Made by a program: the position numbers and the translations under genes
The notes under the pieces: generated by a model
What the model saw: only the letters and a program-made list of their open reading frames with translations
The model's database searches: none
Told to the model about the DNA's origin: nothing
NCBI RefSeq assembly: GCF_032116555.1
Contig: NZ_CP134949.1
Span: 682,001 to 746,000 of the forward strand
Reading direction: 5' to 3'
Length of the DNA stretch: 64,000 nt
Source of the DNA: Halorarum halobium
GTDB lineage: Archaea > Halobacteriota > Halobacteria > Halobacteriales > Haloferacaceae
Shown: piece after piece, positions 7,282 through 54,012 of the stretch
Numbering within the stretch: position 1 is the stretch's first letter
Layout: every line of letters begins with the position of its first letter

Positions 7282-8283
7282 ATGGCCTCTGGCAAGTACG
7301 ATGTCCTGCTGGACGCAGATGAGTGGGAGAGGAGGGTCTTCGAGAACAAGCACAAGTGCATCAATGACTGGCTTCGCAGCAAAGACTCTACGAACAAGTC
7401 GAGTTCACGTCGAACGCTGAACTCGTATAGCAGGACTGCGGCCAGGTTCTTCCACGAGTTCTTCCCGGAGGTGCATCCTTCCGATGTGACGGTTGGGGAC
7501 GTCGAGGAATACGTTCTGGACTTGAACGATAGGGATGTAGCGCAGAACACGAAGAGGAGGTACATCGAATCGTTGTCTGCGTTCTATACCTGGGCGATGA
7601 AGCGGCCACGGTTCGAAGATATCACAGGTAATCCTGCAGCTGTGGTGTTAGAGGAGATTCCGAAGAAGAAACGGCCTCGTCCGGAGACCGCGACATGGGA
7701 GAACGGCCGTGAGATTATCCGGAATATCCCTGATCCCAGGGACAAGGCTGCGGCTATCCTGATGGCGAAGACCGGTGCCCGTGTCCGTGAAGTCCTGACT
7801 GTGAAGGAAGAGGACTTGATGCTTGAAGACGGGTTCATACGGTTCACCGACAGGAAGGGCGGTCATGAAACCGTAAATCCGTTAGACGGTGAAAGCATTC
7901 AGGCCATCCGCCGGTTGCAAGCGGTCTCCTCGGATGACTCGGTGTACCTGTTCACAGGTATCCACGGAGGCAGGGTGAAACGAGAACGGATTAGACGTGA
8001 GATACGCCGAGCAGCAGTGAAAGCGGGAGTCATGGAGCATGAGGAGGAGGATCGGTGGCACCACAAGTTCACGCCGCACTACTACAGGACGATCTTCACG
8101 TCCTTAATGCGGAATAACGGGATGCCGGACCATTTCACCCGGTATCTCCGTGGCGACGGTGACCGGGAAGTCATGGATCTGTATACGAAGATTCCCAGGG
8201 ACCAAGTCCGGGACGAATACTTGGATCTCATCAAACCACTCAACCTGTACGCCAGGACTGACGGAGGTGAGAATCACAGCTGA
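7282..8283 (+). CDS. tyrosine recombinase/integrase
   Basis: Catalytic motifs TGARVRE (R), RKGG (K), PHYYR (HxxR), LRGD and DLY (Y); N-terminal core-binding domain. Confidence 0.93.
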   Translation: MASGKYDVLLDADEWERRVFENKHKCINDWLRSKDSTNKSSSRRTLNSYSRTAARFFHEFFPEVHPSDVTVGDVEEYVLDLNDRDVAQNTKRRYIESLSAFYTWAMKRPRFEDITGNPAAVVLEEIPKKKRPRPETATWENGREIIRNIPDPRDKAAAILMAKTGARVREVLTVKEEDLMLEDGFIRFTDRKGGHETVNPLDGESIQAIRRLQAVSSDDSVYLFTGIHGGRVKRERIRREIRRAAVKAGVMEHEEEDRWHHKFTPHYYRTIFTSLMRNNGMPDHFTRYLRGDGDREVMDLYTKIPRDQVRDEYLDLIKPLNLYARTDGGENHS

Positions 8284-8411
8284 CGAAGCACGAGATCTCA
8301 GAATTTACGGATCAAACCGGGGAACTGGTAGGAGCTACACTTCTGCTTTCCCCGGAAGAGACTCGGGAGCTGAAGGAAGAAGGCACGGTAGAGATCGAGT
8401 TGGATCAGTGA
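8280..8411 (+). CDS. 43-aa acidic protein, putative CTG start (absent from ORF track)
   Basis: GGAGGTGA 9 nt upstream; CTGA overlaps the integrase stop like an ATGA overlap; open acidic frame TKHEISEFTDQTGELVG...IELDQ*. Confidence 0.45.
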   Translation: MTKHEISEFTDQTGELVGATLLLSPEETRELKEEGTVEIELDQ

Positions 8412-8420
8412 AGCCCTGGT

Positions 8421-9353
8421 TTAGATGATTTTGGGGCCGGTGTGACCGTCGACGTGAAGCCGTCCGTCCTTGATTCCGAAGGTATGCTCACCTGGTTCAG
8501 AGATATCGTAAGGGAAGACGGCGAACCGGATTCTGTAAAGTTGGACATCCTCGGTGTCGCCGAAGATGTGTGTATCGAGGTCGGGCTTGATGTACGGGTT
8601 GCGGACCGGTAGAAGCCGGGCCTCTGCAGATCTTCTTGCTGCGTTGATGGTGAGGCTTTGGATCAGTATGAGATCCAGGTTCAGGTAGTCGCCGGGATTT
8701 TCTCTTAGTTCCTTCAGCGTCAGGTGGTAGTAGGTATCGTCGCCAGCGGCCAGGAAGCTGTGGGTTCCGACGACCGCTACGTTGTATTGAAGCGGGTCTT
8801 CTCTTGTCTCCAGTTGGCTGGATGCTCCTCGAAGGGTGCTGCGGATCTTGTTCTGGATCAGTTCCTGGCCGTAGAAATCTGGGCTGAACTGGATGCGTGC
8901 GGCGCTGCCGGGTGCAGATGGTAGACGGGTGACCTCTGCCCGCATGTCTTGAGGAGACTTGTAGAGGATGTCGTAGGCGGCATTGTGGGAACTGTCCTTG
9001 ATGGATTCGTAGAACTCCTCGACCTTGTCGTGGGCTGTTGGGAAGAATCCGTCTGAGTCGTAGAAGTTCTTGGCCTTGACCTGGAGTTGGTAGGTCTTTT
9101 CCTCGTACTCTACGAGGATGTCGACGTCGCCACTGTCGACGTCTGGTTCGATCTCGATATCCCCTGGGTCTACGACTCCTTGGTCGACGATGGCCTTCGC
9201 TGTCCTTAGCTGGGACTCGAAACCGACCTTCTGCCCTCTGTCGCCGTGTTCGATTGCGTGGTTGATTAGGCCTTGACCCTGTTCGGAGAACTGGACTCCC
9301 CTCTCCTCGAGAGTGCTTTTCAACCGCTGGATTTCGAGGGAAGAGGGGATCAC
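8421..9353 (-). CDS. PD-(D/E)XK-like nuclease-fold protein
   Basis: GFE...GDVDILV...YQLQVK arrangement resembles the restriction-endonuclease active site. Confidence 0.5.
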   Translation of the reverse strand: MIPSSLEIQRLKSTLEERGVQFSEQGQGLINHAIEHGDRGQKVGFESQLRTAKAIVDQGVVDPGDIEIEPDVDSGDVDILVEYEEKTYQLQVKAKNFYDSDGFFPTAHDKVEEFYESIKDSSHNAAYDILYKSPQDMRAEVTRLPSAPGSAARIQFSPDFYGQELIQNKIRSTLRGASSQLETREDPLQYNVAVVGTHSFLAAGDDTYYHLTLKELRENPGDYLNLDLILIQSLTINAARRSAEARLLPVRNPYIKPDLDTHIFGDTEDVQLYRIRFAVFPYDISEPGEHTFGIKDGRLHVDGHTGPKII

Positions 9354-9437
9354 TGATTCTCTCTATTACCTTCGGTCAAATAAGAGAACTGCAGATAGGG
9401 TAGACGAACAGGCAACGTTTGAAGGAGACGGCCTGAG

Positions 9438-9818
9438 TTGGCCAGTGATATGAGAGTCCGAGAGTTCTACTGCGATACCTGTGATTTCTGGATGCCTGGT
9501 GGTTTCGGGGAGTATCGGTATGTCATCACGGACGACGGGGAGCGGGAGAAGCTGCTGCATCCCGGTGAGGGTTTGCAGATCCGGAAGGTGTTGGGAGAGG
9601 ACGCCTCTGACGAGTTGATTGAGGAGCGGACGGGTTACATGGTGTACTATGCTTGCAGGGATTGTGCTGCTGTCTTCGAGCTGGAGCGGGAGGAAGATGA
9701 GGAGCTCTGCCCGGAGTGTGGCAGTGGGGACGTGACCTCGGAAAACGACCTGGTTGGCGAGTCTTGTCCAAGCTGTGGAGAGGGAACCTTTGTCGACGAG
9801 ACTACCGGTATAGCTTGA
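9438..9818 (+). CDS. multi zinc-ribbon protein
   Basis: Four CxxC pairs (CDTC, CRDC, CPECG, CPSCG). Confidence 0.75.
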   Translation: MASDMRVREFYCDTCDFWMPGGFGEYRYVITDDGEREKLLHPGEGLQIRKVLGEDASDELIEERTGYMVYYACRDCAAVFELEREEDEELCPECGSGDVTSENDLVGESCPSCGEGTFVDETTGIA

Positions 9819-10183
9819 GGAGTAGGATTGCTGGTCGTGCTCGAATCTGGAAAACCGTGGAGCCAGCCTCGGAACTGGACGCCTTATGACAACTGTTTTA
9901 CAACCGGAGAAACTCGATTCTTTATAAAGGGTTTAATCTGGTTCAAGACGGTCGTAATGAAGGGAGATACCTGGCCGTACGTAGAGAGATGTCCTCGAAC
10001 CGTATTGATTCCGGAAGTTCGGGTCTGGCGATCTCTCGCTTCAGAGGGGTTTCGTTATATTCTGTGTGAAGTTAGCGGTGTTTGTGCCGCGCGACCCTAG
10101 GGGTGAAGCTGGAAATTCCCCTCCGCTACATTTGTCAAACGGGTTAAACTTTATCGTCCTCCAGGCCCTGTACCTTTCTCGGC

Positions 10184-12085: not shown

Positions 12086-12246
12086 GGATGGGTCGTTTAG
12101 CTTGTAAAGTCGTGGAGGCTGTACTCGAGGAGTGTGAGAGGCGGGGAATCGAACTGAGCGATCTGCCTCTTTCTGAAGATGTTGAGGATGATTTGGATTC
12201 TTCTTAAAAAGTTCTGAGCCGCATTACAGCTCGCGGTGGTAGCTGA

Positions 12247-13161
12247 ATCGATTTACGAGAAGCTCAACGACTCCAATATTGCTGTAGTACGGGTCGCGTC
12301 CCATTTGCTGTAGAAGCGTTCGAGGCTGGGTTTCTTCCGGGAAATCGTGAGGACAGCAGTTACCAGCTTACGGAGGAGCATACGAACGTCGACCTGCCCT
12401 CTGGATTCATGGATAATGATTACGAGGACCCGGATCTGGACAGGTTGCTTGAGAAGTTCCATGAACGGGAGCCACGAGTCGCGGTGATCGGAGACGCCTA
12501 CACCAGGGAAGAGGCGGAGAAGTACCAAGATACCATCGACGACCTCGCTGACGAGTACCCGTACCGGCGTTTCATCGTTGCGCCAAAGTGCGAGGCAGCT
12601 TTCGAGGTCCTGGATGCCGAGACTACGACTCTGGGTTATGCGAACGGGAAGAGTTCGGTGCAGGCAGAAGACTTGGGGCCAGTGAAGTTCCGTGGATGGA
12701 ACGTACATATCCTGGGCGGCAATCCTATCGACGCTTATGAGGCTATGCAGTCATTGACTCAGCCAACTCTGGACGGTCGAGAGCCGGCGAACATCGTTGG
12801 ATATGACTGGAATGGGCCGCTGCGGATGGCCTACTGGGAGTATTGGACGCCAGATGGTTGGCAGGACAACGGGCACTTGACACCTCGGGAAACAGCCCGT
12901 AGATCGTACCAGGAAATCAAGCAGTACCTGCAGGAGAAAGATGTGTGGCCGGAGACTGAGCCTCGGGAACTGTACGGTGAGGCTGTAGAGGAACCGGACT
13001 TTGACATCTTCATGGACAAGGGTGGAGACCCGATTCCGTCGCGTGAAGCCTTGGAGACTTCGTACGTCCGTGAGTACGAGGAGAAAGGCACGCTGGCGTT
13101 TGAGTCAGAGTCGCAGATGAAGTTTATCGAGTACCGGGAAGGCTTGACACCGGTCGGCTGA
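12247..13161 (+). CDS. DUF6610-like protein (putative ATC start; ORF track starts at 12409)
   Basis: DND/PDLD, IGD, PK, LGY, RGWNVHILGG, DWNG motifs of the haloarchaeal plasmid family. The conserved-looking N-terminus RVPFAVEAFEAGFLPGNRED lies upstream of the first ATG; GGTGG + 7 nt + ATC directly after an in-frame TGA. Confidence 0.65.
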   Translation: MDLREAQRLQYCCSTGRVPFAVEAFEAGFLPGNREDSSYQLTEEHTNVDLPSGFMDNDYEDPDLDRLLEKFHEREPRVAVIGDAYTREEAEKYQDTIDDLADEYPYRRFIVAPKCEAAFEVLDAETTTLGYANGKSSVQAEDLGPVKFRGWNVHILGGNPIDAYEAMQSLTQPTLDGREPANIVGYDWNGPLRMAYWEYWTPDGWQDNGHLTPRETARRSYQEIKQYLQEKDVWPETEPRELYGEAVEEPDFDIFMDKGGDPIPSREALETSYVREYEEKGTLAFESESQMKFIEYREGLTPVG

Positions 13162-14812: not shown

Positions 14813-15133
14813 CTATTCGGTCTCCAGTAGTTCATCGATCTCCCAGAAGTCCATTGTCTCGTCCTGTTCTTCGTCGTAGAGTGCGACTGCTTTCACGCCT
14901 TCTTCCGGCTTCGTGTAGAGCAGGTCATATCGTTCATCGTTGCCGGTGTCGATGGAGAAGTAGGGCATGGTGCTGCCTTTGACTTCGTGACTGTAATCGC
15001 CGGCTTGGTCTTCAAGGATGGATCTGACTTTTTCGAGCGGCAGATTCACGGGGAAGATGTAGTCGCCGTCGTTGAGTTTGATAGAGCCGCCGAGTGGCTC
15101 GCTCAGGGTTTTGTCGTATTCTACACGTCCTAT
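14813..15133 (-). CDS. hypothetical protein (putative ATA start; 106 aa)
   Basis: AGGTGA + 6 nt + ATA GGA CGT; in-frame TGA within the SD. The extension LGGSIKLNDGDYIFP is homologous to a segment of 51958-52890. Confidence 0.65.
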   Translation of the reverse strand: MGRVEYDKTLSEPLGGSIKLNDGDYIFPVNLPLEKVRSILEDQAGDYSHEVKGSTMPYFSIDTGNDERYDLLYTKPEEGVKAVALYDEEQDETMDFWEIDELLETE

Positions 15134-15170
15134 ACACAGTCACCTATCCGGGTTCTTCTCAATGGTATTT

Positions 15171-15400: not shown

Positions 15401-16099
15401 CTAACCACCTTCCAGCCAGTCGTTCCAGTCTGATTGTCCGTCGACGTCCGGTACATCCAGGTCCGGTTCTCTGTAGGAACGTACTGAGGATTGCCGTGAC
15501 TCAGTATCTTGGTTCCGGGTTTCTTCGTAGAACTCGGCCTCTTCCTTCAACCAGGCCATTTGCTCCCCGATTCCGGAGAAGTCCTGCTCCTGGAATGGGA
15601 ACCGGGTTTCCCAGGGAAACGGTTCGAACACATCGTTCTCTTTGAGAGGGTCGACGTAGTCGTCGCCGGCGAGTACGATTAATCGGCGGCAGTGCGGATT
15701 CTCTTCGGGAAACCCTGATTTCATGCCGAGCCAGGAAGCGAGTCCGTAGTGAACGCGGCGGGTCCAGAAGTCGAGCCGGTCGTTGTAGAGTGGTTCGTCC
15801 CAGGGATAGCTGGTGTGTTGGTAGGCTTCTGGTTCGACTGGTGCTGGTTCTCCTTCCAGGTCTCCTATGGTGGTGTTGTAGGGTTCTGTTTCGAGGCTGG
15901 GCCAGAGTACGTCGTGTTCGGCGGAGAGTATCGCCCAAGGCGTGGTCCCTTCCGGGGCGTCTTCCCCGATTTGTGACCGGGCCTCTGCGTATCGCTTCTT
16001 CAGCTGGAAGTACGTCGACGTGTAGAGATCCTCGGCAGGTACGGGTTCATTCTGTTTCTGCTGGCCGCAGCCAACCAAGACGTAGGTGCCGTCCTCGAT
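15401..16099 (-). CDS. DUF6884-like protein (putative ATC start)
   Basis: YVLVGCGQQK...PAEDLYTSTYF...YAE...WAILSAEH...LAGDDY...GIGEQMAWL; ATC directly follows the upstream TAG, 7 nt after AGGTGA. Confidence 0.7.
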   Translation of the reverse strand: MEDGTYVLVGCGQQKQNEPVPAEDLYTSTYFQLKKRYAEARSQIGEDAPEGTTPWAILSAEHDVLWPSLETEPYNTTIGDLEGEPAPVEPEAYQHTSYPWDEPLYNDRLDFWTRRVHYGLASWLGMKSGFPEENPHCRRLIVLAGDDYVDPLKENDVFEPFPWETRFPFQEQDFSGIGEQMAWLKEEAEFYEETRNQDTESRQSSVRSYREPDLDVPDVDGQSDWNDWLEGG

Positions 16100-16327
16100 C
16101 TACGAATCACCTTCTCCGGGTTCGAGTGCTTCCCCAGCTTCTTCGATCGTGGCCGGGAAGATCATCAGATCCGGGTTTTCCTCCAAGGCGGTGTCGATAC
16201 AGTCCTCGTGGCTTTGGATGTAGTCGGGGACTCCAGAGTAGACGAATTTCAGGACTGGTTCTTCAAGATCTGTACCGGTGTAGAGTTCTGCGATGTAGTA
16301 GCCGTCGACCTCTCTGCCGTCTACTAT
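16100..16327 (-). CDS. acidic hypothetical protein (start uncertain, possibly ATA; absent from ORF track)
   Basis: Open frame IVDGREVDGYYIAELY...EGDS*; AGGTGA 12 nt upstream. Confidence 0.5.
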   Translation of the reverse strand: MVDGREVDGYYIAELYTGTDLEEPVLKFVYSGVPDYIQSHEDCIDTALEENPDLMIFPATIEEAGEALEPGEGDS

Positions 16328-16427
16328 GACCGGTGATTCTCACCTTGATTGAGTAAATGTAACCCGAAGAGAGTCGCCGCGACTCCTCCAAAATATGCCA
16401 GTAAAACCACATCCATACAGCTGAACG

Positions 16428-16778
16428 TCACTCTGTATCACCTTCCAGTATCTCCGACACTGGCTCCAGGTCGGCCTCTTCCCGTGCCCGGTCGACGTTT
16501 TCCAAACTCGTTGACGGTCCGGCGGAGAGGAAGACTGCTTTCTTCGCTTCGAAGTACAGATCCTCCGGGATGTCGTAGTCGTCGAGGATGTCCTCGATCA
16601 GTTCTTCCTGCTTGTCCTCGTGGAGATAATGCCGTAGGTAGGTTGGCGGATCGTCTCTGACTGCGTCACCTGGGTCCAGGCTGCTGTAGTCGAGGCCGGG
16701 AGTGGCTTCTTCGTAGAGTGTGTCGAGTATTTCAAAGTAGGCGTCTTCCCATTCATCCTGTACGTCGTCGAGGTTCAC
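16428..16778 (-). CDS. acidic hypothetical protein
   Basis: 116 aa, GTGA overlap with upstream gene, SD present. Confidence 0.7.
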   Translation of the reverse strand: MNLDDVQDEWEDAYFEILDTLYEEATPGLDYSSLDPGDAVRDDPPTYLRHYLHEDKQEELIEDILDDYDIPEDLYFEAKKAVFLSAGPSTSLENVDRAREEADLEPVSEILEGDTE

Positions 16779-17269
16779 AGGGAAGGATCACCTTCGCCTT
16801 TCTGGGGTATGTAGTAGGGTTCGTTGCCGCTGAACTTCTCGACACGCTCCAGGTCAACCTCTTCCTCGACGTACTGGTCGATGGCTTCCTCCGCTGCTTC
16901 CAATGTGATCGCTCCTGATCTGCCGCCGAGTTGCTCTGGGTCCGTCCTGTAGAGTGCGTCGAGGCATGGCCCGTAGCCGTACTTGTTCATGATTCCGGCG
17001 CGGCTGCTCCACGGACCTTTCAGAGTGACTTCTTCTCCGTCGACGGTTTCGATCTCGTAGTGGCGTCCGTTGTACCCGTCTTGTTGGCCACCGTCCCAGG
17101 CGAAGAACTGGACGTAACCCGAGTCGTGTTCAGCGTACCATAGCCCCTGTTCCTCGCTGCCTTCAAACTCGAGGTCGCTGGTGTCGGGGATTTCGTCGAC
17201 GTATAGTATGAGTCGTGGGTCGTTTCCGAAGTCTTCCTTCCAGTCGATTTCAGCGTCTTCTAACTCGAT
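16775..17269 (-). CDS. hypothetical protein, 164 aa (putative ATC start; ORF track shows only the last 71 aa)
   Basis: AGGTGA + 6 nt + ATC GAG TTA; 93 codons of acidic open frame (ELEDAEIDWKEDFGNDP...LKGPWSSRAG) before the first ATG. Confidence 0.7.
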   Translation of the reverse strand: MELEDAEIDWKEDFGNDPRLILYVDEIPDTSDLEFEGSEEQGLWYAEHDSGYVQFFAWDGGQQDGYNGRHYEIETVDGEEVTLKGPWSSRAGIMNKYGYGPCLDALYRTDPEQLGGRSGAITLEAAEEAIDQYVEEEVDLERVEKFSGNEPYYIPQKGEGDPSL

Positions 17270-17280
17270 TGTGTATCACC

Positions 17281-17643
17281 TTAGAGAGTTTTTGGTTGCA
17301 GATTTGTCTCGTCAGCTTTTACGACAATCACTCCCGTTGCTATTCTGGGTGCTGTATAGTATGTGGGCAAAACCCGGAAATTTACCTGCTCTCCCTCTTC
17401 AAAGTCATCAGGGTTCTGAGTCAAGACTATATACACCTTAGAATAACCGAAAATCCAGTCTGGAGTGCCTCTGATAAGTCTCTTTTTCCAAAGTGAATCT
17501 GGTTCTGCATCTACTATAACCCTAATCGCAGACCAGTCAGTATCATGCAAGCACTGAGTAGCCGGATAGTGAATAACCTCCTTGTTTTCTATGACTTGGC
17601 CGATCTTACCTTCTATCTCTTTGATCCCAACTCCTTTAGTCAG
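17281..17643 (-). CDS. hypothetical protein (start probably CTG 17643 or the GTG inside the SD)
   Basis: AT-richer open frame; CTGACTAA overlaps the upstream stop like ATGACTAA. Confidence 0.5.
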   Translation of the reverse strand: MTKGVGIKEIEGKIGQVIENKEVIHYPATQCLHDTDWSAIRVIVDAEPDSLWKKRLIRGTPDWIFGYSKVYIVLTQNPDDFEEGEQVNFRVLPTYYTAPRIATGVIVVKADETNLQPKTL

Positions 17644-28214: not shown

Positions 28215-28373
28215 GTGGAGCAGGGTTTCGATCGAGGCGACTACGGCAAGGTATTGAAGGCGATTAAGAAGAAGCACATCTGCCCGATATGCAGCAAGGC
28301 TTGGGACAGTCAGAAGAAGGCAGTGGAGAAGTTCTTTGAGAATCACAGTGTCGACGAACTCGAGTCCAGATAA
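28215..28373 (+). CDS. 52-aa protein with CPIC motif
   Basis: MEQGFDRGDYGKVLKAIKKKHICPICSK...; overlaps the 3' end of the convergent gene. Confidence 0.45.
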   Translation: MEQGFDRGDYGKVLKAIKKKHICPICSKAWDSQKKAVEKFFENHSVDELESR

Positions 28374-28669: not shown

Positions 28670-28676
28670 TCCAGGA

Positions 28677-29279: not shown

Positions 29280-29292
29280 CTATGAGATCACC

Positions 29293-30291: not shown

Positions 30292-30360
30292 AGAGATTCA
30301 CCTGCTAACTCCTGTTTTCTCTGTGTCATTTTTATAAGTAGGTTTTCCACAATGCGTGTT

Positions 30361-39365: not shown

Positions 39366-39448
39366 CGTTTGTCACCTATACCAACACTGTGATGTTATCT
39401 TTAAAAAAGTATAATCATAGTGACTATTTGAGGTGAAACAACCGTACA

Positions 39449-40040: not shown

Positions 40041-40156
40041 AGCCTTTGCGCGTATCCGCGTACACGCACCCGTGAGAAGGTCGCCGGAATCACGCACCGC
40101 ATCAGCATAATGCATATAAAGATAATTCGGTCAACCCTTTCCCAGGTGAACTACCA

Positions 40157-40471
40157 ATTACATCCGAACAAGAACGCGAGATCGAATCTATACTCAAGAA
40201 ATTCCCATTCCACGGCAGAGACACAGACCGCCAAGTCACCGTGCTATCCTCATACCTGGTAGAGGCACTCGGCAACAACAAGACCGACACAGCCGAAGAA
40301 CTCGAGGTGGATAGGAACACGGTGAACAAGATCGAAAAATCTTGGAACAGTCTGTCCCTATCTGAGAAATTGAAGCTGATCGACTTCCTCCGCAGGGAGG
40401 TTGCCGAGAGACACTTCACAGATCTAGAGGCAGTGTCCGTTGATTCGGGGACCGGCGGCCAGACCGCATAA
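40157..40471 (+). CDS. HTH protein, 104 aa (putative ATT start)
   Basis: NKTDTAEELEVDRNTVNK HTH; TATAAAG at about 40115, AGGTGA + 7 nt + ATT. Confidence 0.65.
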   Translation: MTSEQEREIESILKKFPFHGRDTDRQVTVLSSYLVEALGNNKTDTAEELEVDRNTVNKIEKSWNSLSLSEKLKLIDFLRREVAERHFTDLEAVSVDSGTGGQTA

Positions 40472-43180: not shown

Positions 43181-43226
43181 GGATATAAAAAAGATATTAC
43201 ATAAACCACAACCAAGGTGAAGAAAA

Positions 43227-44534
43227 GTGGGAGAAGACTCGAAAACAGAACTGAAACAGGAAGACTTCGGACTCTTCCAAGACAACAACGACAGCAAAAT
43301 CTTCGCAGACATCGATATCCTCGACCCTGATAGGATTCCTGGTCCCGACGAGTTCGTAGAGAGAAAAGAGGAGATGCAGACCATAGCGTCCGGCCTGCGT
43401 CACATGATTAACGGGAACTCCGGGAGGAACATGATGATAACCGGGGACACCGGGCTCGGGAAAACGATGTGTGCCCGGATAACCGTCAACGAACTCTCCC
43501 GGAATATGGACGAGCACCAGAACTTCCGGCACGAATACTTCAACGACCTCGAGTCGGAGAGAGACACGTTACAGAAGCTATCCCGTGCCTTGGAACTTGT
43601 TCCCGAGAAGAAGACGGAGCCATACCAAGGGACAAATCTCTCCTTCTACTACGACCTACTCGTTGAGAAATTGAAGCAGGAGGAGATCTACCTCGTCATT
43701 ACTTTCGACGAAGTCGACCGGTTGATGTCGAACAAGAAGGAGGGGAAGCCGGCGAGTCACGGGAACTCAATGCTAAAACAGCTGTTAGAGGTGAGGAAGA
43801 AATTGAAGAACTCCGATGCAGAGGCAGGGTTAACTCTGATCTGTATCACCAACGATTCCAGCGTTCCCGGAGATCTCTCGTCCAAAGTCAAGGACCGCTT
43901 CGGGAGAGAGGGACTTCACTTCTCAAGCTACAACGCCCTCCAGCTGAGGAACATCCTTGAGAAAAGGGCGGAGAAGGCTTTCCAGCCTGGTGTAGTTGAT
44001 AGCGGGGCAATCTTCGCCACGGCTTCCCTGGTGGCTCGTGATAGTGCTTCAGCCAGAAGAGCGATTGAACTCTTGCGGAAAGCAGGTGAACTGGCTGATG
44101 AGAACGGAGACGGTGAAATAAGGAAAGAGGATCACGTCGATCCGGCACACGAGGCCCTGGAAACGAACGAAATTCTGGAGGCGATCAAAAGTCTGCCGAA
44201 GCACAACAAGATCACTCTGTACGCCATTATAGCGAATTACTCTGGAGGCAAGCTCGCAACCGGCGATGTCTACGAGAATTACAAGGAGATCTGCAGGAAG
44301 CGGGCTGACCTTTCAGAGAGTGAGATGCTGTCTCAGAGATCGATCAGTGAACACATCAAGAAGATGGATATGCAAGGTATCATCCAGGCCAAGACGGTGT
44401 CCAAGGGAAGGTATGGCCGGACGCGTGAGATAACTATCAATTTCAGTGAGTCCACACGCCAAGATTTGATGGAGCATCTCCATGAGGAAAACCTGTACCT
44501 GGCTCCGGACTCGATGGCTGCAGAGCCCACCTGA
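43227..44534 (+). CDS. cdc6: Orc1/Cdc6 replication initiator
   Basis: GDTGLGKT Walker A, ITFDEVD Walker B, YNALQLRNILEKRA, ARRAIELLRKAGELA, C-terminal wH SKGRYGRT. Confidence 0.93.
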   Translation: MGEDSKTELKQEDFGLFQDNNDSKIFADIDILDPDRIPGPDEFVERKEEMQTIASGLRHMINGNSGRNMMITGDTGLGKTMCARITVNELSRNMDEHQNFRHEYFNDLESERDTLQKLSRALELVPEKKTEPYQGTNLSFYYDLLVEKLKQEEIYLVITFDEVDRLMSNKKEGKPASHGNSMLKQLLEVRKKLKNSDAEAGLTLICITNDSSVPGDLSSKVKDRFGREGLHFSSYNALQLRNILEKRAEKAFQPGVVDSGAIFATASLVARDSASARRAIELLRKAGELADENGDGEIRKEDHVDPAHEALETNEILEAIKSLPKHNKITLYAIIANYSGGKLATGDVYENYKEICRKRADLSESEMLSQRSISEHIKKMDMQGIIQAKTVSKGRYGRTREITINFSESTRQDLMEHLHEENLYLAPDSMAAEPT

Positions 44535-44724
44535 AACAGGGGTGGGTCGGCCTTGATTTCAATTGAATCTTTAAAATCGAGTATTCCTCAACACGATTCC
44601 ATGATTAGACACGGGGTGGTATCGAATCGCAAATCTGTCGGAGGTATCTGACCGACCCCACCGTGTAGATTCTATCCAGTCCTGGTTTCTGAAAGCAGTT
44701 GCAAATCGATGGTCTGCCGAGAAG

Positions 44725-46296
44725 ATGGCCGACCATCTCACCGAATATACTGACGACGACTTCTCACCTCGAACTGTTAGACGAGCCTTGAAAGGACTCT
44801 CCGGGCAGAAACAGAACGTCCCGAAGAAGTACCACTCCGAGCAACGCTTCCTGAAGCCGATCCAGGAACACCCGGACAACGCAGTCAACTACGCCCTGAC
44901 CGACGAAGGACGGGCGGTGGTCCGGGAAGTTGACGTGCCCCTGAATCTGTCGACGGTCGGGGATGATGTCGGTGGGTTCGGTGAGGTGGAGTCGCCAGAG
45001 GTTCGTCCGCATAAGTGCTGGTGGCGTGAGGAGGTTCGCCGGAAGGAGGGGGATGCGCCTGGTGACTTGGATTGGGGTGATCGGAAGGCGATTCTCGCTG
45101 AGAAGGATATCGGCTGGGAGTCGGTGGAGAAGGAGTTGCCGCATCGGGAGCAGTCGGAGCGGGGTCAATTGGTTCACTTCAAGTCGGTGCGGTTGATCTT
45201 GTTCGAGAACTCGGTTCTGGTTCGGTACAGCTTGCCGTCAAGCGAGAGGGATGTTTTCGATGTCCTGGATGAGTGGTGGAATACTCGGCAGGAGGCGGTG
45301 GATTGGCTGGAGTCCGTGTTCCCGGTGAAGGTCAGGAGTTCTCCGTTGGATGTGTCGATGCCGTTGTCGACGCAGGAGTGGGGTGATGTCCGGAACGAGT
45401 TTGCGGAGTGGATCCAGGAGAATCCCGAGTTCCAGGACGACTCACCAAACTCCCTTTTTGAGGTGAAGAACGACGAAGGGGAGCGAGTCTTCCACGTCGA
45501 CACCAGTCCAGAAGACGGCCTGGGTAACGACGTAGCGGAGGGGGAGTTTCCGCATAGCCAGTTCGGTGCCGGGCACATCACGAATATGAAGCAGGCGGTG
45601 AAGTGGCTGGCCTGTCTCGGTGTGAAGCCCCAGGATTTTACTGCGGCTCAGTGGACCCGAAGCAACAGGGATGAACTGCAGAAGGTTGTTGAACTGGATG
45701 CAGAAGAACTTGAGAGCCGGGTCGAAGACGTCGAGGATTCTGTCGATGGTCTCCAGGACGACATCAGTTCGTTGGAGAGTCAGGTGACTCGGCTGGACGG
45801 GAAGGTCGACGGGGTATCGGAGGGTTTGCAGCAGAACCGGGAGTGGATCAGCGATGTCGAAGAACGTGTGGATGATGCTGTAGGCCGTGTCGACGGCACT
45901 CGGAGAGAGTTCTCCCAGTTGAAGGATGACGTCAACACGGACATCGAATCCCTGGAGGACAAGATCGGTGAGGAGGTTGAGTCGACACGGCAACTGGTCC
46001 GGGAGGAAGTCGGCGGTGTGGAGTCACAGGTCGAAAGTATGGAGGACGAGTTGGGGACGGTCAGAGGCACGGTCACGGATTTGACGTTGACGACGTCGGA
46101 GCTTCAGTCGGCGATTGAGAAGCGGGGAGAGCGGCTGGACAGGCAGAACCAGAAAATGATTGAAGAATTGCAGCGGCTTCGACGGCTTCAGGAGAGATCC
46201 GTTGTCGACAGGGTTCGGGATACAGCTGAAGACCTGGCAGAAGTAGGTAGATCTGCAGTCAAGTCCGCGAAGGAAGCATTGACTTCTGTTCTGTGA
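44725..46296 (+). CDS. wHTH + unknown globular domain + long coiled coil; possible replication-associated protein
   Basis: TVRRALK...YALTDEG wHTH; RPH and HVDTSP...EGE motifs; heptad-rich C-terminal third. Confidence 0.55.
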   Translation: MADHLTEYTDDDFSPRTVRRALKGLSGQKQNVPKKYHSEQRFLKPIQEHPDNAVNYALTDEGRAVVREVDVPLNLSTVGDDVGGFGEVESPEVRPHKCWWREEVRRKEGDAPGDLDWGDRKAILAEKDIGWESVEKELPHREQSERGQLVHFKSVRLILFENSVLVRYSLPSSERDVFDVLDEWWNTRQEAVDWLESVFPVKVRSSPLDVSMPLSTQEWGDVRNEFAEWIQENPEFQDDSPNSLFEVKNDEGERVFHVDTSPEDGLGNDVAEGEFPHSQFGAGHITNMKQAVKWLACLGVKPQDFTAAQWTRSNRDELQKVVELDAEELESRVEDVEDSVDGLQDDISSLESQVTRLDGKVDGVSEGLQQNREWISDVEERVDDAVGRVDGTRREFSQLKDDVNTDIESLEDKIGEEVESTRQLVREEVGGVESQVESMEDELGTVRGTVTDLTLTTSELQSAIEKRGERLDRQNQKMIEELQRLRRLQERSVVDRVRDTAEDLAEVGRSAVKSAKEALTSVL

Positions 46297-46297
46297 G

Positions 46298-48342: not shown

Positions 48343-49761
48343 ATGTTTCGCAACCACGAGGGCGGGCGTGAGGCAAGCCACCATCACGGCGAACTCTACA
48401 AGGATCTTGTCCGCAGGTACTGGGAGGCCCGTGAATACAATGTTGTCGCGGACTCGAAGGACGACAGCATCACGTCCGACCTGATTATCAGGCGGGCTCA
48501 TGAACACGGGAACCAAGATCTGTGGATCGAGACGAAGGACACGAAGCTGACTCGGACCAATCCGGATTTCCTGGCCGAGTTTGCCCGGTACATGATCGAG
48601 TATCAGGAAATTTCTGCGGAACACCGGTTCGACCTGCATATTTTCGTCCGGTATCTCCGGGCTCCGGAGAAGTGGGAGCGGATTTTCAAGGTGGTCAAGC
48701 AGAAGGATGAGGCTGTAAAGGACTTCTATCAGCGGGTCCAGGATGATGCGGATCTGGACGAGGCTGAGGAAGACAAGTTCAACAGCTACCCTTACGAGGA
48801 TTTTGACCACTTCGTTACAGAGGTCACAACTGTCCATCAGATGTCGCCTGCGAAGGTCCAGCAGGCTACGGAGGAGTTGGAACGCAGTGACCGGTACGAG
48901 CACGACACCTTCACCGAGGAAAGGGAACCGATCAACAAGCGAGAGGAGCTGAGACCGAACTTCGCGGAGATAAACAGTCCGCCAGAGAACATCTATATCG
49001 GGGACGTGGACGTTCCGAACTTCTTCCAGGGAGTTACGAACCTGATTGAGGATACGGAGGCAGTCCGGTTCCGGTCGAACAAGGTATTCAGCTTGCTGCC
49101 TCCCGAGGATTTCCCGGATTACGTGGAGTCGGTCGTGGAGATGGATACGGTTTCAGCTGAGTCTTTCGAGGACTGGGCTAAGGACGAAGAGAACACAGAT
49201 CTGGCTTCGTCCTTGCTGACTCGGGAGATCTGCAGGCAGACCGTGGAGAACCACGAGTTGGACGACTGTGTGGCGTTCCGGTACCGTGGCGACTACTACC
49301 TGATGTTCGAGCACGGACCTCTAGAGAAAGAGGTCGAGAAAGTTCGGGGTCAGCAGGTTTCCCGGGTTTTCAGTGATGCCTCTTCCAGGTTTGTTCGTCA
49401 CCGGACTGCCCAGCTGAACGTCCGGCGTTTGAACGACGACTACTTCCTCTTCGTATTGATCAAGGACCACTTTACGGACAACGGAGAGCACATGACCTTG
49501 ATCAGAGGTGAGAGAAAGGGAAGTCTCCACGATAATTTCCCGCAGCACCGGTACAACAACAGTCAGACGTACAGCAGGTATAACCACTGGCGGAAGATCC
49601 TGGGAATCCACAACCGGGCGAAGGATACCAGTGGTCAGATAATCGGGTTCCGACGTATCACTGAGATCTCGATCGGGAAGCGTCCCGCCGGGACACGGGA
49701 GGCAATCGATACTCGGGACACTGATTCGGTTCAGCAGAAACTGGGTGATCACAATGACTGA
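48343..49761 (+). CDS. PD-(D/E)XK nuclease-APAZ fusion (short pAgo partner)
   Basis: N-terminal SDLII...WIETK; EELRPNFAEI..PPENIY and YNN...NHWRKIL APAZ-like segments; 8-nt overlap with pAgo. Confidence 0.7.
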   Translation: MFRNHEGGREASHHHGELYKDLVRRYWEAREYNVVADSKDDSITSDLIIRRAHEHGNQDLWIETKDTKLTRTNPDFLAEFARYMIEYQEISAEHRFDLHIFVRYLRAPEKWERIFKVVKQKDEAVKDFYQRVQDDADLDEAEEDKFNSYPYEDFDHFVTEVTTVHQMSPAKVQQATEELERSDRYEHDTFTEEREPINKREELRPNFAEINSPPENIYIGDVDVPNFFQGVTNLIEDTEAVRFRSNKVFSLLPPEDFPDYVESVVEMDTVSAESFEDWAKDEENTDLASSLLTREICRQTVENHELDDCVAFRYRGDYYLMFEHGPLEKEVEKVRGQQVSRVFSDASSRFVRHRTAQLNVRRLNDDYFLFVLIKDHFTDNGEHMTLIRGERKGSLHDNFPQHRYNNSQTYSRYNHWRKILGIHNRAKDTSGQIIGFRRITEISIGKRPAGTREAIDTRDTDSVQQKLGDHND

Positions 49762-51175
49762 TTTCGATGCACGGTGGCTGGGCGAGCCGTCTCTGAAGTT
49801 CGGAGATGGTGAAGCGAAGGATCCTCGCGCCGGCCTGCTGAAACACGGGCCGTGGTCGCCTGGGGAAGGCAACAACCACAACGATATCTATGTCGGGTTC
49901 ATCGGGACCAGTCACTCCATCAGCGCGGTCAAGCGGTTGTTCACTGAGATGGAGACGGTGATCCCCCGGGAGGAGGAAGAACCTCAAAGGCACAAGCCTC
50001 CGTTCCCGGCCCTGGGCACCGACTCTGCCTTCCGTGCCAGCTTCACGATGCTGGACAGGTGGACGTGGGAGATGCCGCCGAGCGACGTCAAACTCGTTAC
50101 TGACGAGCCCACGACTGACCAGAGCGTAGAGACTCTGCTTGACTTAATGGAGATCTATATCAAGGATCTTTCCGGGGATGACCCGCCTCCGAACGTACTT
50201 GTTATTTCGCTGCCGGAGGAGATCGAGGAAGCCTGTACTCACCCGGACAAGAGCAAGGAGAAGATGAAAGCGGGGGACACTGACTTCCACGACCGGATTA
50301 AGACGTTCGGCCTCGAGTATGACGTCCCCACCCAGCTGATTCGACCGAGTTCTCTCCGGTTCGATGACGATGAGGGACAGGAGAAGGCCGAGGTTGCCTG
50401 GAATCTCGCCGTGGCGATGCTCTACAAGTCACGTGAGGGCCATCCCTGGAAGCTGGGGCACCTGGAGAACGACACCTGCTACGCCGGGATCTCATTCTAC
50501 CGTGTGCGGCACGGCGATAAGAGCCAGACACGGGCTTCACTCGCCCAGGTTTTCCTGGGCACCGGGGAGAGCTTCGTGCTTCGCGGCGGCCAAGCAATTA
50601 GAGACGAGTCAACAGGAAACAACCACTTGACCGAGGACAGTGCGGAGGAGATTGTCGGGCAGATCCTTGACCAGTACAAGAGGAAGCGTCGAGGAGCCGA
50701 GCCCAGCAGGTTCGTGCTTCACAAGACTTCCCGGTTCAAGCCCGGTGAACGAGAAGGGTTCAAACGAGGGGCTGGAGACATCGACAAACTGGACTTCGTC
50801 ACGGTGCGCGACGGCGACCCAGTCAGGCTGTACAGTTCAGGGAATTACCCGCCGCTTCGTGGGACAGTAGTCACTCCGAAAGGCGAGGACAAACACTACC
50901 TCTACACACAGGGCTACACTCCGGCCATTCAGACGTATCCAGGTCCTCGCATCCCGGCCCCGATCACCGTTGAGCCAGATCCGGAGGAATGCCACAGCTC
51001 GTACGACGAGATATGTGAGGAGATTCTCTCGTTCACGAAGCTGGACTGGAACACGTCCGACTTTTCGAAAAAGAAGCCGGTCACGATCCGTGTGGCGCAG
51101 GCTGTCGGCGCGATCCTTGCAGAGGCCGACAAACGGGGAATCACGGTCAAACCGCAGTACTACTATTATATGTAA
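49754..51175 (+). CDS. short prokaryotic Argonaute (MID-PIWI, catalytically inactive)
   Basis: EPSLKFG, FHDRIK...PTQLI, WNLAVAMLYK...PWKL, CYAGISFY, VLHK, PLRGT, TYPG, TKLDWN...PVT; no N/PAZ domains, no DEDX tetrad. Confidence 0.92.
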   Translation: MTDFDARWLGEPSLKFGDGEAKDPRAGLLKHGPWSPGEGNNHNDIYVGFIGTSHSISAVKRLFTEMETVIPREEEEPQRHKPPFPALGTDSAFRASFTMLDRWTWEMPPSDVKLVTDEPTTDQSVETLLDLMEIYIKDLSGDDPPPNVLVISLPEEIEEACTHPDKSKEKMKAGDTDFHDRIKTFGLEYDVPTQLIRPSSLRFDDDEGQEKAEVAWNLAVAMLYKSREGHPWKLGHLENDTCYAGISFYRVRHGDKSQTRASLAQVFLGTGESFVLRGGQAIRDESTGNNHLTEDSAEEIVGQILDQYKRKRRGAEPSRFVLHKTSRFKPGEREGFKRGAGDIDKLDFVTVRDGDPVRLYSSGNYPPLRGTVVTPKGEDKHYLYTQGYTPAIQTYPGPRIPAPITVEPDPEECHSSYDEICEEILSFTKLDWNTSDFSKKKPVTIRVAQAVGAILAEADKRGITVKPQYYYYM

Positions 51176-51957: not shown

Positions 51958-52890
51958 CTAGAAGTCAGTGAGGCCGATCTGCTCCGTTTCTTCGCCGTCC
52001 TCGTCTTCCTGTTCGTCTTCTTCGAGTCCGTATTCTTTTTTGACTCGTTCCGGCATCTGCAGGACCCCAGAGTCAGGGCTGTGCTCGTTCCTGTAGACTC
52101 CGGCTTTCTGAAGTTCTTCGAATAGGCTGTGAGCGTCGATGTCCCACGTGTTCTCGAGATGGGTGACGTCGCTGGTCGTGGCCCAGGAGATCGTTCTCAA
52201 GTTGGTGTATTCGTCGATCAAGAGTTCAGCAAGAGATGAATCGACGCCGTCGACCTCGGAAAGCCGTTCGATGAAGTGGTCCTCGGCCAGGTCGTCTACG
52301 TGGAAGGTGTCGTAGACCTCTTCGCTGCCCCGGTCCAGTACGTGGATCTCGTTCAGGATCTTCGTCCCGGTTATCTCGTTGGTGCCGCGTAGCTCGGCGG
52401 TCAATTGGTATTTCTCCAGAGCGGCTTCTGGTGTGAGTTCGAGGAAGTCGGGTCGGTAGTCGACGTAGATGTCGTTCGAGTCCTCGGTTTTTGATTCGAG
52501 TATGTCCGCTGCGGTGGAGAACGGTGCCCGGAACGGAAGCACGTAGTCGCCGTCGTCGAGTAGGATGGAGCCGCCGAGTGCGTCATTCAGTCCTGGGTCG
52601 AACTCCGGGTCGGGCAGTGAGCGGTAGCCGTGGTTCTCCAGATTATCGATGACGTCTTCCCAGGGCTGCTGGTAAACGTAGTCTTGAAGCCGTGCTTTGG
52701 GGTCGCCGTGGTCCAGTCTCCAGGCATCGTCTTGCTGGAGCTGGCCTTCCTGGTCGGGGCTGGCGAGTATGACTTCTGCGTGTTCGGGTGTGTATCGGTA
52801 GAAGTGTAGGTAGCCTTGTTCTGCGTCTTTTCCAAGGAACTGGTACTCTGCGTCGTGGAACTCGACTGTTTCCGGAGCGCCAGTGTCGAT
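51958..52890 (-). CDS. 310-aa protein with helix-hairpin-helix motif (putative ATC start)
   Basis: LSEVDGVDSSLAELL HhH; 116 acidic codons open upstream of the track's GTG; AGGGTGG + 7 nt + ATC; TTTAAAAA box upstream. Confidence 0.65.
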   Translation of the reverse strand: MDTGAPETVEFHDAEYQFLGKDAEQGYLHFYRYTPEHAEVILASPDQEGQLQQDDAWRLDHGDPKARLQDYVYQQPWEDVIDNLENHGYRSLPDPEFDPGLNDALGGSILLDDGDYVLPFRAPFSTAADILESKTEDSNDIYVDYRPDFLELTPEAALEKYQLTAELRGTNEITGTKILNEIHVLDRGSEEVYDTFHVDDLAEDHFIERLSEVDGVDSSLAELLIDEYTNLRTISWATTSDVTHLENTWDIDAHSLFEELQKAGVYRNEHSPDSGVLQMPERVKKEYGLEEDEQEDEDGEETEQIGLTDF

Positions 52891-52956
52891 TTGATGTCCA
52901 CCCTGAAGCAGTATGCGGGTTTACTTTTTAAATCAGTTTGAGAAATTGATGTCTAA

Positions 52957-53238
52957 GTGGTATTATCGGTGGTACACAACGCTGAAGGCGACGATCTCGT
53001 ACAATATCTTGAAAATCGGCTAAAGAAGCTTCTTGGAGAGAGGCCAGACGGCTCTCGTCTGAAGACAGACGATTACAGCAAGCTCTGGTTTCTACCGGTC
53101 TACCATCTGAATACCAAGAAACATCGAGAAAACGGATGGTGGACTAGTAACAGCATCTCTGTTTCGACATACAGGACTGCTCGTGAACTGGAGAAGATGA
53201 TTGATCGCCTGACGGAAGGATTTCGCAACGAGGGATAA
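52957..53238 (+). CDS. hypothetical protein
   Basis: 93-aa ORF. Confidence 0.5.
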   Translation: MVLSVVHNAEGDDLVQYLENRLKKLLGERPDGSRLKTDDYSKLWFLPVYHLNTKKHRENGWWTSNSISVSTYRTARELEKMIDRLTEGFRNEG

Positions 53239-53241
53239 TCG

Positions 53242-53499
53242 GTGAAAGACTACGAACTGGCGCAGAAACTCTACATCTTGCTCATCGGTCTTTCAGTCGG
53301 TGCAGGGAGATACATTCCATGGACCATAGAGATCCCGGTATCGTTCAGTGATTACGCGGAAGTCCCTATTGCCGAGTTCATAGGGCATCCCCTTGTACTG
53401 GTTTCCCTGGTGATCATGTACATAGTAATCGAGGCCAGAGAGCCTACCTTCGAGGAGAAACTGAGTGAGGTGATACAGGAATCTGACCTGAAGATTTGA
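53242..53499 (+). CDS. small membrane protein
   Basis: Two hydrophobic segments. Confidence 0.65.
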   Translation: MKDYELAQKLYILLIGLSVGAGRYIPWTIEIPVSFSDYAEVPIAEFIGHPLVLVSLVIMYIVIEAREPTFEEKLSEVIQESDLKI

Positions 53500-53697
53500 A
53501 ATAAGTGATGATACAATTCTGTGGGGGTAGGGATTCGCTTTTTAAATCACTTTCACACATTAGAAGGTAGATTGTGATGATGAGATGTGCAGCGTGAGTG
53601 TGCCCGGAGAAGGACACGTGGAGGCAGAAAACCCGTCCAAGCTTCCTCTGGAGGAAGCCGAAGAAGGCAGCTTCTACCTGTGAGGTGAGGAACTGAG

Positions 53698-54012
53698 GTG
53701 ATGACGGAGCCGGTCGACGCTGCAAGAAGTCTTCTCAGGATTACTCGTCCCTCGGTGGAGGAACTAAGACAGCAGCGGGAGTTACGGGAGTATTCGAGTT
53801 CGGAGGTAGATGTTCCAGATCCTCAGAAGGTTTTACTGGAGAACTTGGACCATCTCACTGGTTCGGAGCACGTAATAGAGGAGAATGTGGAGGACGCTAT
53901 TCAACTGGTTCTGGAGTGGCCTGAGGACCAGCTGGATGAGGTCAAGGAGCGTGTCCGGGAACTGGCGAAGCCTGTAGTCACTGGAGGTGAGGAATCTGAG
54001 GAAGGAATTTAA
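53698..54012 (+). CDS. hypothetical protein
   Basis: 104 aa, SD upstream. Confidence 0.65.
   Translation: MMTEPVDAARSLLRITRPSVEELRQQRELREYSSSEVDVPDPQKVLLENLDHLTGSEHVIEENVEDAIQLVLEWPEDQLDEVKERVRELAKPVVTGGEESEEGI

Follow-up and report, generated by a model that had tools for sequence, protein, structure and literature searches.

Haloarchaea typically initiate translation in a leaderless, AUG-dependent manner. NCBI translation table 11 lists ATT, ATC and ATA as possible starts, and infC and pcnB of Escherichia coli begin with near-cognate AUH codons (H stands for A, C or U, or T in DNA) that are led by a Shine-Dalgarno (SD) motif, infC being tied to a regulatory loop of IF3. Further cases have been described: according to the cited passages, ebpA of Enterococcus faecalis begins at ATT (PMC4447247), dnaA and rpsL of Deinococcus start at ATC and CTG, respectively (PMC2830850), and a rare ATT start codon has been proposed for the Asgard tubulin AtubA (PMC13394414). 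Ribosome profiling of Haloferax volcanii with harringtonine placed about 30% of the putative alternative initiation sites at near-cognate codons, which the authors, in the passages cited, set aside as possible false positives (PMC7261190). Here, we analyze 64 kb of the genome of Halorarum halobium (contig NZ_CP134949.1, positions 682,001-746,000; "the window") and the compositional island that the window enters, about 98 kb long and with about 53% GC in a chromosome of about 70% GC, which we read as an integrated plasmid- or ICE-like (integrative and conjugative element) mobile element of the tyrosine-integrase type. A preliminary description of the window had reported that backbone genes of this element start at ATT, ATC or ATA behind SD motifs. 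The observation is real, and it is stronger and much wider than first seen; its reading as near-cognate initiation appears well supported.

Position, conservation and enrichment of the ATH codons

All ten genes listed in the preliminary description carry the reported Ile codon 6-8 nt past GGTGA or GGTGG. At four of them (15133, 17269, 30291 and 39365) the arrangement is AGGTGA plus 6 nt and thus identical to that of the GTG starts at 43227 and 18396, as had been claimed; the distance from GGTGA or GGTGG is 7 nt at 12247, 16099, 28669, 40157 and 52890, and 8 nt from GGTGA at 29279. Since the 16S rRNA of this genome has the 3' end GGAUCACCUCCU, GGTGA(TC) is a true SD complement. The genes are given below with the number of codons to the first in-frame ATG, GTG or TTG ("canonical" codons). 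Coding scores are codon-usage log-odds per codon, trained on long frames of related elements only, and are given for the extension upstream of that codon and for the body of the gene.

12235..13161, plus strand: DUF6610 gene; ATC 12247 at GGTGG (12235-12239) plus 7 nt; stop 1 codon upstream; domain at amino acids (aa) 24-227; first canonical codon 54
14813..15145, minus strand: gene for 106 aa; ATA 15133 at AGGTGA (15145-15140) plus 6 nt; first canonical codon 28; extension 0.34, body 0.41
15401..16111, minus strand: DUF6884 gene; ATC 16099 at GGTGA plus 7 nt, or TTG 16078 (codon 7); domain at aa 7-81
16775..17281, minus strand: gene for 164 aa; ATC 17269 at AGGTGA plus 6 nt; first canonical codon 93 (ATG); extension 0.39, body 0.34
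28343..28681, minus strand: gene for 108 aa; ATT 28669 at GGTGA plus 7 nt; no canonical codon; coding score 0.36
28677..29292, minus strand: gene for 200 aa; ATT 29279 at GGTGA plus 8 nt; first canonical codon 49
29293..30303, minus strand: DUF932 gene, head of its operon; ATT 30291 at AGGTGA plus 6 nt; first canonical codon 105 (ATG)
38622..39377, minus strand: Amidoligase_2 gene; ATT 39365 at AGGTGA plus 6 nt; domain at aa 24-199; first canonical codon 82; extension 0.19, body 0.18
40144..40471, plus strand: helix-turn-helix-like gene for 104 aa; ATT 40157 at AGGTGA plus 7 nt; first canonical codon 28 (GTG); extension 0.21, body 0.23
51958..52902, minus strand: gene for 310 aa; ATC 52890 at GGTGG plus 7 nt; first canonical codon 116 (GTG); extension 0.38, body 0.36

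The frame 28669-28346 is entirely devoid of canonical starts, as had been noted. Two other parts of the preliminary description hold with qualifications. Extensions free of ATG, GTG and TTG are found at nine of the ten sites, but 16099 is ambiguous, with TTG 16078 only 7 codons downstream. In-frame stops do lie 1-11 codons upstream at nine sites (the frame of 40157 is open for 28 codons upstream), but at a spacing of 6 nt the stop is merely the TGA of GGTGA, a by-product of the motif and no separate evidence. With an SD 6-8 nt upstream and no ATG, the ATH genes do not resemble leaderless AUG genes. Four of them (30291, 39365, 40157 and 52890) are first genes with AT-rich, promoter-like DNA upstream. 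By contrast, and as described before, the genes for pAgo, its Aga nuclease partner, DUF4238 proteins and SspF/G/H-like proteins, i.e. defence cargo, begin with ATG.

The family motifs that had been noticed in the extensions are borne out by Pfam, with domains beginning at aa 24 (DUF6610), 65 (DUF932), 24 (Amidoligase_2) and 7 (DUF6884); in the first three families, domain onset precedes the first canonical codon by 30-58 codons. At eight of the ten sites the extensions score as high as the bodies (0.19-0.39 per codon), compared to an average of -0.02 for open frames upstream of ordinary ATG or GTG starts. The extension of 12247 is supported by Pfam and homology instead, whereas for 40157, with a weak HTH_3 match (E=0.009) and no informative homologue found, support is moderate. 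Pfam domains, coding potential and the homologue alignments described below together show, as far as sequence can, that the stretches upstream of the first ATG, GTG or TTG are translated.

Alignment of homologues at their N-termini had been named beforehand as a check, and ATH turned out to be conserved at the same residue. When the DUF932 protein was compared with 400 other Halobacteria genomes by six-frame tblastn, 31 of these gave matches; counting its own genome, this makes 32 of 401 genomes, from 21 of 91 genera. The following counts refer to the 30 loci returned, among them the window's own gene (L001; G numbers denote sampled genomes and L numbers loci fetched from them). The N-terminal codon is ATT in 18, ATC in 7 and ATG in 5 loci, always at the same residue, and all 25 ATH codons lie 6-8 nt behind GGTGA or GGTGG. 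Of the 30 alignments, 28 begin within query residues 1-10 and none contains an internal stop, while protein identity within the set goes down to about 44%. On the DUF932 tree, the third base of the start codon changed at least nine times, comprising six ATT/ATC interchanges and three changes to ATG. No match to DUF932 was obtained by tblastn in plasmid and phage collections. About 20 of the related loci (L005-L028) share a conserved non-coding motif, GAAAC-N3-GGTGT...TACTAC, about 40-70 nt upstream of the DUF932 start, which could be an operator, promoter or leader element; the loci closest to the window (L001-L004) have an AT-rich, TATA-like box 35-45 nt upstream instead.

Besides DUF932, five other families retain ATH. 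Neighbouring genes were compared in stretches of up to about 100 kb per genome around the DUF932 loci. All 11 homologues of the 29279 gene have ATH (ATA 7, ATC 3, ATT 1; no ATG) 6-8 nt after GGTGA or GGTGG. ATC is found in 3/3 homologues of the 28669 gene, 6 or 7 nt behind GGTGA or GGTGG, and at the same distances from the SD in 3/3 homologues of the 17269 gene (G059, G007, G291). Two of three homologues of the 15133 gene (G059, G007) have ATA at GGTGA plus 6 nt, the third lying within a longer frame. The 16099 homologue of G059 is fused to the upstream frame, which itself opens with ATC behind GGTGA plus 7 nt. For 52890, the homologue of G291 has ATC two codons upstream at GGTGA plus 7 nt, the one of G059 begins at ATC and gains an extension of 106 codons, and the one of G007 gives no clear picture. 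Among the genes used for comparison, ATG genes keep ATG across the related elements, and GTG is kept in a recurrent junction motif, GGTGAGAATC-N4-GTG.

DUF6610 occurs in 132 of 401 genomes, and its starts were analyzed in the 30 loci returned. Of 13 loci with a local G+C of at most 0.54, ten combine an SD with ATH at the same N-terminus or a few codons away from it; among the other three, one has ATC but no listed SD, and two lack a recognisable start. No canonical start stands at that N-terminus in any of the 13. In the group with a G+C of 0.56-0.64 (17 loci), 14 lack an SD and begin with an ATG that lies 11-28 codons further upstream. The family therefore appears to switch start type and N-terminal length with the kind of replicon. 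The higher-GC homologues are L106-L123 and also include one in the H. halobium genome itself (G000:C2:104187-104915). In a few homologues of several families (L095 and L098 of DUF6610, the G007 homologue of a gene at 44626 and the G291 homologue of one at 54705) the SD-positioned codon is GTA, GTC or GTT, without ATG, GTG, TTG or ATH; these may be decaying genes or have more degenerate starts.

The second check named beforehand was to count SD-positioned ATH on coding versus non-coding frames. We recorded which codon follows GGTG[AG] at 6-8 nt in open frames of at least 80 codons, considering the first 15 codons of each frame. In this census, the island has 13 ATH compared to 3.8 expected (p=1e-4), and 9 compared to 1.2 in frames of at least 200 codons (p=1e-6). 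The low-GC DNA of 19 related elements (743 kb) contains 68 ATH, with 25.2 expected (p=2e-13), along with 28 ATG (9.2 expected) and 29 GTG (8.6 expected). ATH is not enriched in the host chromosome (52, 70.1 expected), where ATG is (76, 40.6 expected), and the excess is also absent from the two other replicons of this genome and from the high-GC flanks of the related elements. GTH and ACN, taken as controls, are flat. Counted by site, 12 of 44 island occurrences of GGTG[AG] plus 6 or 7 nt plus ATH stand at the 5' end of a frame of at least 80 codons, compared to 45 of 875 when the codon is one of the remaining 54 sense codons (odds ratio (OR) 6.9, p=5e-6). The corresponding figures are 65/332 and 248/6462 in the relatives (OR 6.1, p=7e-25) and 33/426 and 3655/37075 in the host chromosome (OR 0.8).

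At the 5' ends of open frames in the low-GC element DNA of 20 genomes, ATH shows a sharp spacing peak, with 51 cases at 6 nt, 24 at 7 nt and about 6 in every other bin. ATG (21 and 9) and GTG (20 and 12, plus 32 at 9 nt that stem from the junction motif) peak likewise, TTG only weakly, and ACN, AAH, CTH, TTY/TCN and CTG do not. Over background, the excess at 6 and 7 nt amounts to 23.6 for ATG, 23.7 for ATT, 26.4 for ATC, 13.6 for ATA, 26.7 for GTG, 7.3 for TTG and 5.7 for CTG, and there is none for GTT, GTC, ACN, AAG or AGG. At this distance, ATH is as frequent as ATG and GTG together in low-GC element DNA. The enriched codons differ from ATG by a single mismatch at position 1 (G, and weakly U or C) or position 3; mismatches at position 2 are not enriched. 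Within ATN, the excess is shared by G, T, C and A as third base at 27%, 27%, 30% and 16%, while the third-position composition of the elements' genes is 27%, 18%, 34% and 21%. GTA, although enriched at SD plus 6 nt, was rejected as a start since 15 of 18 such sites have GTG at 9 nt (junction motif GGTGAGAAYCNGTAGTG), GTA being the codon before the GTG start. Median SD duplex energies are alike for ATH, ATG and GTG starts (-11.8, -12.2 and -10.5 kcal/mol), and we rejected the idea of stronger SDs compensating for ATH.

We also called genes ad hoc in 20 elements by codon-usage score, admitting ATH only behind GGTG[AG] at 6-8 nt. Of 809 genes, 79 (9.8%) start with ATH; 18 of the 20 elements have at least one such gene, and this island has 13 among 115 genes. 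The 229 genes with GGTG[AG] 5-10 nt upstream begin with ATH (79), GTG (76), ATG (51), TTG (20) or CTG (3), and of 512 genes without an SD, 408 begin with ATG. Roughly half of the ATH genes head an operon; the others, 39 of the 79 (49%), follow a gene of the same strand at a distance of up to 30 nt. Clustering assigns the ATH genes to 31 families. Of all 52 families that have three or more members, 41 contain no ATH gene, 8 are mixed and 3 consist of ATH genes alone, which makes the start type a heritable, family-specific trait rather than scatter; ATH is called in 13/13 genes of the 29279-type family and in 14/18 of DUF932. An apparent depletion of ATG, GTG and TTG within the first 60 codons after ATH (2.5% compared to 3.3%) was dropped, as it is confounded by the caller favouring ATH where the canonical codon is distant.

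Interpretation of the ATH starts

It is quite likely, in our view, that this lineage of elements practises SD-led near-cognate initiation at AUH codons with the Met-tRNAi of the host. The earlier proposal that backbone genes use SD-positioned near-cognate starts is strongly supported by conservation, spacing and statistics. Position and spacing of the codons, their conservation, the coding extensions and the restriction to the elements are direct observations. Two classes of initiation would coexist in the element: ATG without a ribosome-binding site, which looks leaderless and would serve most of the cargo, and an SD-led class in which (A/G)GGTGA(TC) or GGTGG would pair with the 16S 3' end and the codon 6-7 nt downstream, be it AUG, GUG, AUU, AUC or AUA, would be the start. 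The SD duplex would dock the host 30S subunit and place AUH in the P site, where Met-tRNAi would tolerate the third-base mismatch, and the proteins would begin with Met. More tentatively, discrimination of the third base may be low at SD-docked sites, with AUH being tolerated and persisting, perhaps at lower or condition-dependent output. The number of genes with AUH starts would be at least 10 to 12 for the window and 13 to 15 for the entire island; in 20 related elements, their share would be about 10%.

Several points weigh against this reading. The homologous loci are kin, and the p-values overstate their independence; likewise, the percentages of ATH genes depend on the caller's rule for ATH. 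The extensions of 12247 and 44626 score low (0.05 and 0.03), and 44626 stays a moderate candidate; in its homologue of G007, the aligned codon behind the SD is GTC. The two low-GC DUF6610 loci without a recognisable start are L095 (G007) and L098 (G185). For the amidoligase (39365), the 400 other Halobacteria genomes yielded no homologue with which its start could be compared, and 16099 could start at TTG 16078. Finally, Met as the first residue and the efficiency of ATH starts are deduced rather than observed.

An extension of this reading, which we hold only tentatively, is that the SD-led start in these elements is effectively AUN (plus GUG), the third base being barely proofread once (A/G)GGUGA(UC) is docked 6-7 nt upstream. 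Archaeal SD-guided initiation might have an intrinsically relaxed check of the third base, which haloarchaeal chromosomes would hide by leaderless, strictly AUG-dependent initiation; in a bolder version, an element-encoded factor might relax aIF1-type proofreading for the element's own mRNAs.

About as doubtful, though not in conflict with the anatomy described above, is the idea that ATH is a selected weak start and that ATG is avoided in order to keep backbone proteins low or condition-dependent, as with infC. Whole families keeping ATH across genera, the lack of ATG in 11/11, 3/3 and 3/3 homologues of three families and the fact that host chromosomal genes do not use ATH would all agree with such selection. 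Yet ATG arose at least three times on the DUF932 tree, compared to six ATT/ATC changes, the SDs of ATH starts are neither stronger nor weaker than those of ATG, and the ATN excess tracks third-position composition as expected without selection on that base. With proportions this near to base composition, a weak third-base constraint fits better than strong avoidance of ATG, although the kinship of the loci limits this inference.

It is improbable that initiation is independent of AUH recognition, be it by termination-reinitiation coupling or by an element factor that relaxes proofreading (aIF1-like control). Coupling would suit the half of the ATH genes that closely follow another gene, but the other half has no close upstream gene, and 30291, 39365, 40157 and 52890 come first behind promoter-like DNA. 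The few homologues with GTC, GTT or CTG as SD-positioned codon would also agree with such independence, but the excess is confined to AUN and GUG and not seen for ACN, AAG, AGG, GTT or GTC, which means that codon identity matters. Most element proteins lack a Pfam match and leave room for an unrecognised factor; still, Pfam scans of the element proteins found no translation-factor domain, and ARAGORN found no tRNA gene in the window or the rest of the island, which excludes an element-encoded initiator tRNA.

That translation begins only at the first downstream ATG, GTG or TTG, with the sequence before it as an untranslated leader and SD plus ATH as a coincidence, is very improbable. Databases seem to favour it, as five of the six database proteins identical to loci begin at such internal codons; these, however, were picked by gene callers and lack an SD. 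Moreover, Pfam domains and protein conservation reach to within a few residues of ATH, as in 28 of 30 DUF932 alignments, the codon usage of the extensions equals that of the bodies, and the 28669 frame offers no canonical codon at all.

The relic of a donor with relaxed start selection, which the preliminary description had considered, fits poorly and is unlikely because ATH is retained across many genera: it persists down to about 44% protein identity and in 21 of 91 sampled genera, with ATT and ATC interchanging at least six times on the DUF932 tree. Least of all do we expect pseudogenes or sequencing errors (a misread third-base G, or a frameshift cutting off an upstream ATG): beyond the generic worry about non-canonical starts in a single assembly nothing specific speaks for them, more than 20 genomes, assembled independently, show these ATH starts again in intact frames of equal length, all 30 DUF932 matches are free of stops, and upstream in-frame stops bound the frames. 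An altered code or TGA read-through was rejected, as the bounding stops mix TGA and TAG, the TGA of the SD is out of frame at 7-8 nt and operon-first genes follow intergenic DNA.

The element and further start candidates

Extended coordinates continue the numbering past the right end of the window and cover the whole island, which outruns the window: its left GC shift lies at about 5,000-5,500 and the right one at about extended 103,500. An integrase, a replication gene (Cdc6) and transfer-type ATPases (HerA/TrwB-like, AAA_10) occur together in this low-GC island, as expected of an integrated element.

6688..6703 and extended 103637 (L052/L053 boundary region): 16-bp exact direct repeat, candidate attachment core
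7282..8283, plus strand: tyrosine integrase with Phage_integrase and SAM-like domains, ATG start, near the left end of the element
26745-28142: HerA/TrwB-like ATPase (Pfam)
31612-33156: AAA_10/VirB4-like ATPase (Pfam)
43215..44534, plus strand: Cdc6/Orc1 (gene 43227-44534), GTG 43227 at AGGTGA plus 6 nt, a canonical start with the same SD geometry
48343..51175, plus strand: defence cargo with ATG starts, Aga-type nuclease (48343-49758) and short pAgo (49754-51172)
48343-51172, 55107-62770, 62812-64980 (L073), 21399-22535 and L051:12461-13357: defence cargo, all with ATG starts

The left copy of the 16-bp repeat lies just upstream of the integrase operon and the right copy exactly at the GC boundary, with no tRNA gene as a target; we estimate the chance expectation for a shared 16-mer between the 7-kb and 8-kb stretches compared at about 0.01. 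Integrase homologues begin with ATG in five related elements. Further Pfam content comprises DUF932, DUF6610, DUF6884 and DUF6908 as well as the amidoligase, which adjoins a GATase-like gene. PADLOC identified the defence pair as pAgo_I (E=3e-145) and Aga_REase (E=6e-80). SspF/SspG-like genes lie beside a 1535-aa FtsK-domain protein (55107-62770), and the cargo also includes a DruA-like gene and two DUF4238 genes. For hardly any gene in the right half of the island (extended 55,000-104,000) did the 19 related elements fetched, most of which span 30-60 kb, contain a homologue, and the 98-kb island may therefore be composite, e.g. two elements or a large block of cargo. The AAA_10/VirB4-like gene (31609-33264, minus strand; overlapping frame 33012-33656) has 36 coding-looking codons (score 0.40) upstream of its first GTG, and in the homologues of G059 and G247 the frame stays open for about another 170 codons upstream, which suggests that the window's copy has a frameshift, is a split gene or uses another non-canonical start.

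Additional candidates for non-canonical starts are the following.

8266..8411, plus strand: 43-aa frame, CTG 8280, overlapping the integrase stop (CTGA) in a GGTGAGAATC-N4 junction motif; plausible, unproven
16100..16344, minus strand: frame of about 76 codons behind GGTGAGAATC, GTC 16330 or ATA 16327; only canonical start a late ATG
44615..46296, plus strand: 556-aa gene, ATC 44626 at GGTGG plus 6 nt, first ATG at codon 33, extension score 0.03
extended 73202: ATT
extended 82518: ATC, helicase, first canonical codon 80
extended 103181: ATT

The protein starting at 44626 has an HTH_32 match at aa 9-55 below the curated cut-off. In G059, the frame corresponding to 16100-16344 and the DUF6884 gene are fused, with ATC at GGTGA plus 7 nt as the opening codon. 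The helicase (ERCC3/ResIII; L072:518-2215, extended 82518-84215) is about 51% identical to a chromosomal paralogue (G000:C1:1514830-1515372). Its N-terminal 221 aa matched only this near-universal paralogue (385/398 genomes), and from residue 41 on, which indicates that residues 41-80 are coding and does not inform on the start codon. Relatives of the helicase, the amidoligase and DUF6610 were not found in a viral contig collection.

CTG starts, which the preliminary description had raised as possible, fared unevenly. CTG is not enriched in the island (1/17) and only weakly in the relatives (10/133, OR 2.0, p=0.04), and we dropped it as a general start. The candidate at 8280 is plausible, with two homologues that start two codons later at ATA or ATC behind GGTGA plus 8 or 9 nt. 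Those at 17643 and 53996, each with an in-frame GTG three codons upstream inside the SD itself and with no homologues found, are undecided. One candidate with homology support lies outside the window and would be the best CTG case: an 896-aa gene with a Gins51_C domain (extended 87366; L072:5366) has CTG at GGTGA plus 7 nt and its first canonical codon at 80, and at the residue aligned with this CTG its closest homologue has ATA, located at GGTGA plus 6 nt.

The junction motif GGTGAGAATC-N4-GTG has five matches in the window with at most one mismatch (40745-40761, 41637-41653, 42098-42114, 8266-8282 and, on the minus strand, 16328-16344), compared to 0.15 expected; three of them are GTG starts. 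It also occurs in the elements of G007, G059 and G291. It recurs between small genes of one operon, where an SD and a fixed spacer lead to a stop-start overlap of TAG and GTG (GTAGTG). Unusually for an SD spacer, its very sequence is conserved between genera.

Comparison with known systems

Our literature search found no paper that describes ATT, ATC or ATA starts in haloarchaeal elements, the supplementary tables of PMC7261190, which may list near-cognate sites, lying outside that search. One RefSeq protein (P0066, locus L012) is already annotated from exactly the ATT proposed here. If our reading is true, a widespread family of elements (32/401 genomes and 21/91 genera by DUF932) is systematically mis-annotated, and genes of the 28669 type cannot be called by any finder restricted to ATG, GTG and TTG. 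Start-codon rules in haloarchaea would then depend on the mode of initiation, the leaderless mode needing AUG and the SD-led mode accepting AUN and GUG, which would make archaeal start-codon proofreading directly accessible to genetics. The difference between the element and its host would also serve as a sequence signature for recognising this family of elements and its gene boundaries.

The leaderless AUG mode fits the cargo of the element and many of its SD-less genes; the ATH genes differ from it by an SD 6-7 nt upstream. With the profiling sites of H. volcanii they share a haloarchaeal host, but in the passages cited those sites are not tied to SD motifs, families or mobile elements (PMC7261190), and the evidence presented here comes from sequence alone. 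As proposed for Asgard AtubA in the cited passage (PMC13394414), an archaeon would use ATT, here confined to low-GC integrated elements in GC-rich Halobacteria. The closest likeness is to the bacterial infC, pcnB, ebpA and dnaA, which also combine a codon with a one-base mismatch, normal SD spacing and conservation in relatives and are overlooked by gene finders. Those, however, are single genes per genome, often with a specific regulatory loop, whereas dozens of unrelated families in one archaeal element lineage are concerned here. In conclusion, SD-led AUH starts are known singly from bacteria, and what appears to be new is their use as a habit across many gene families of haloarchaeal elements, whose hosts' own genes seem to do without it.

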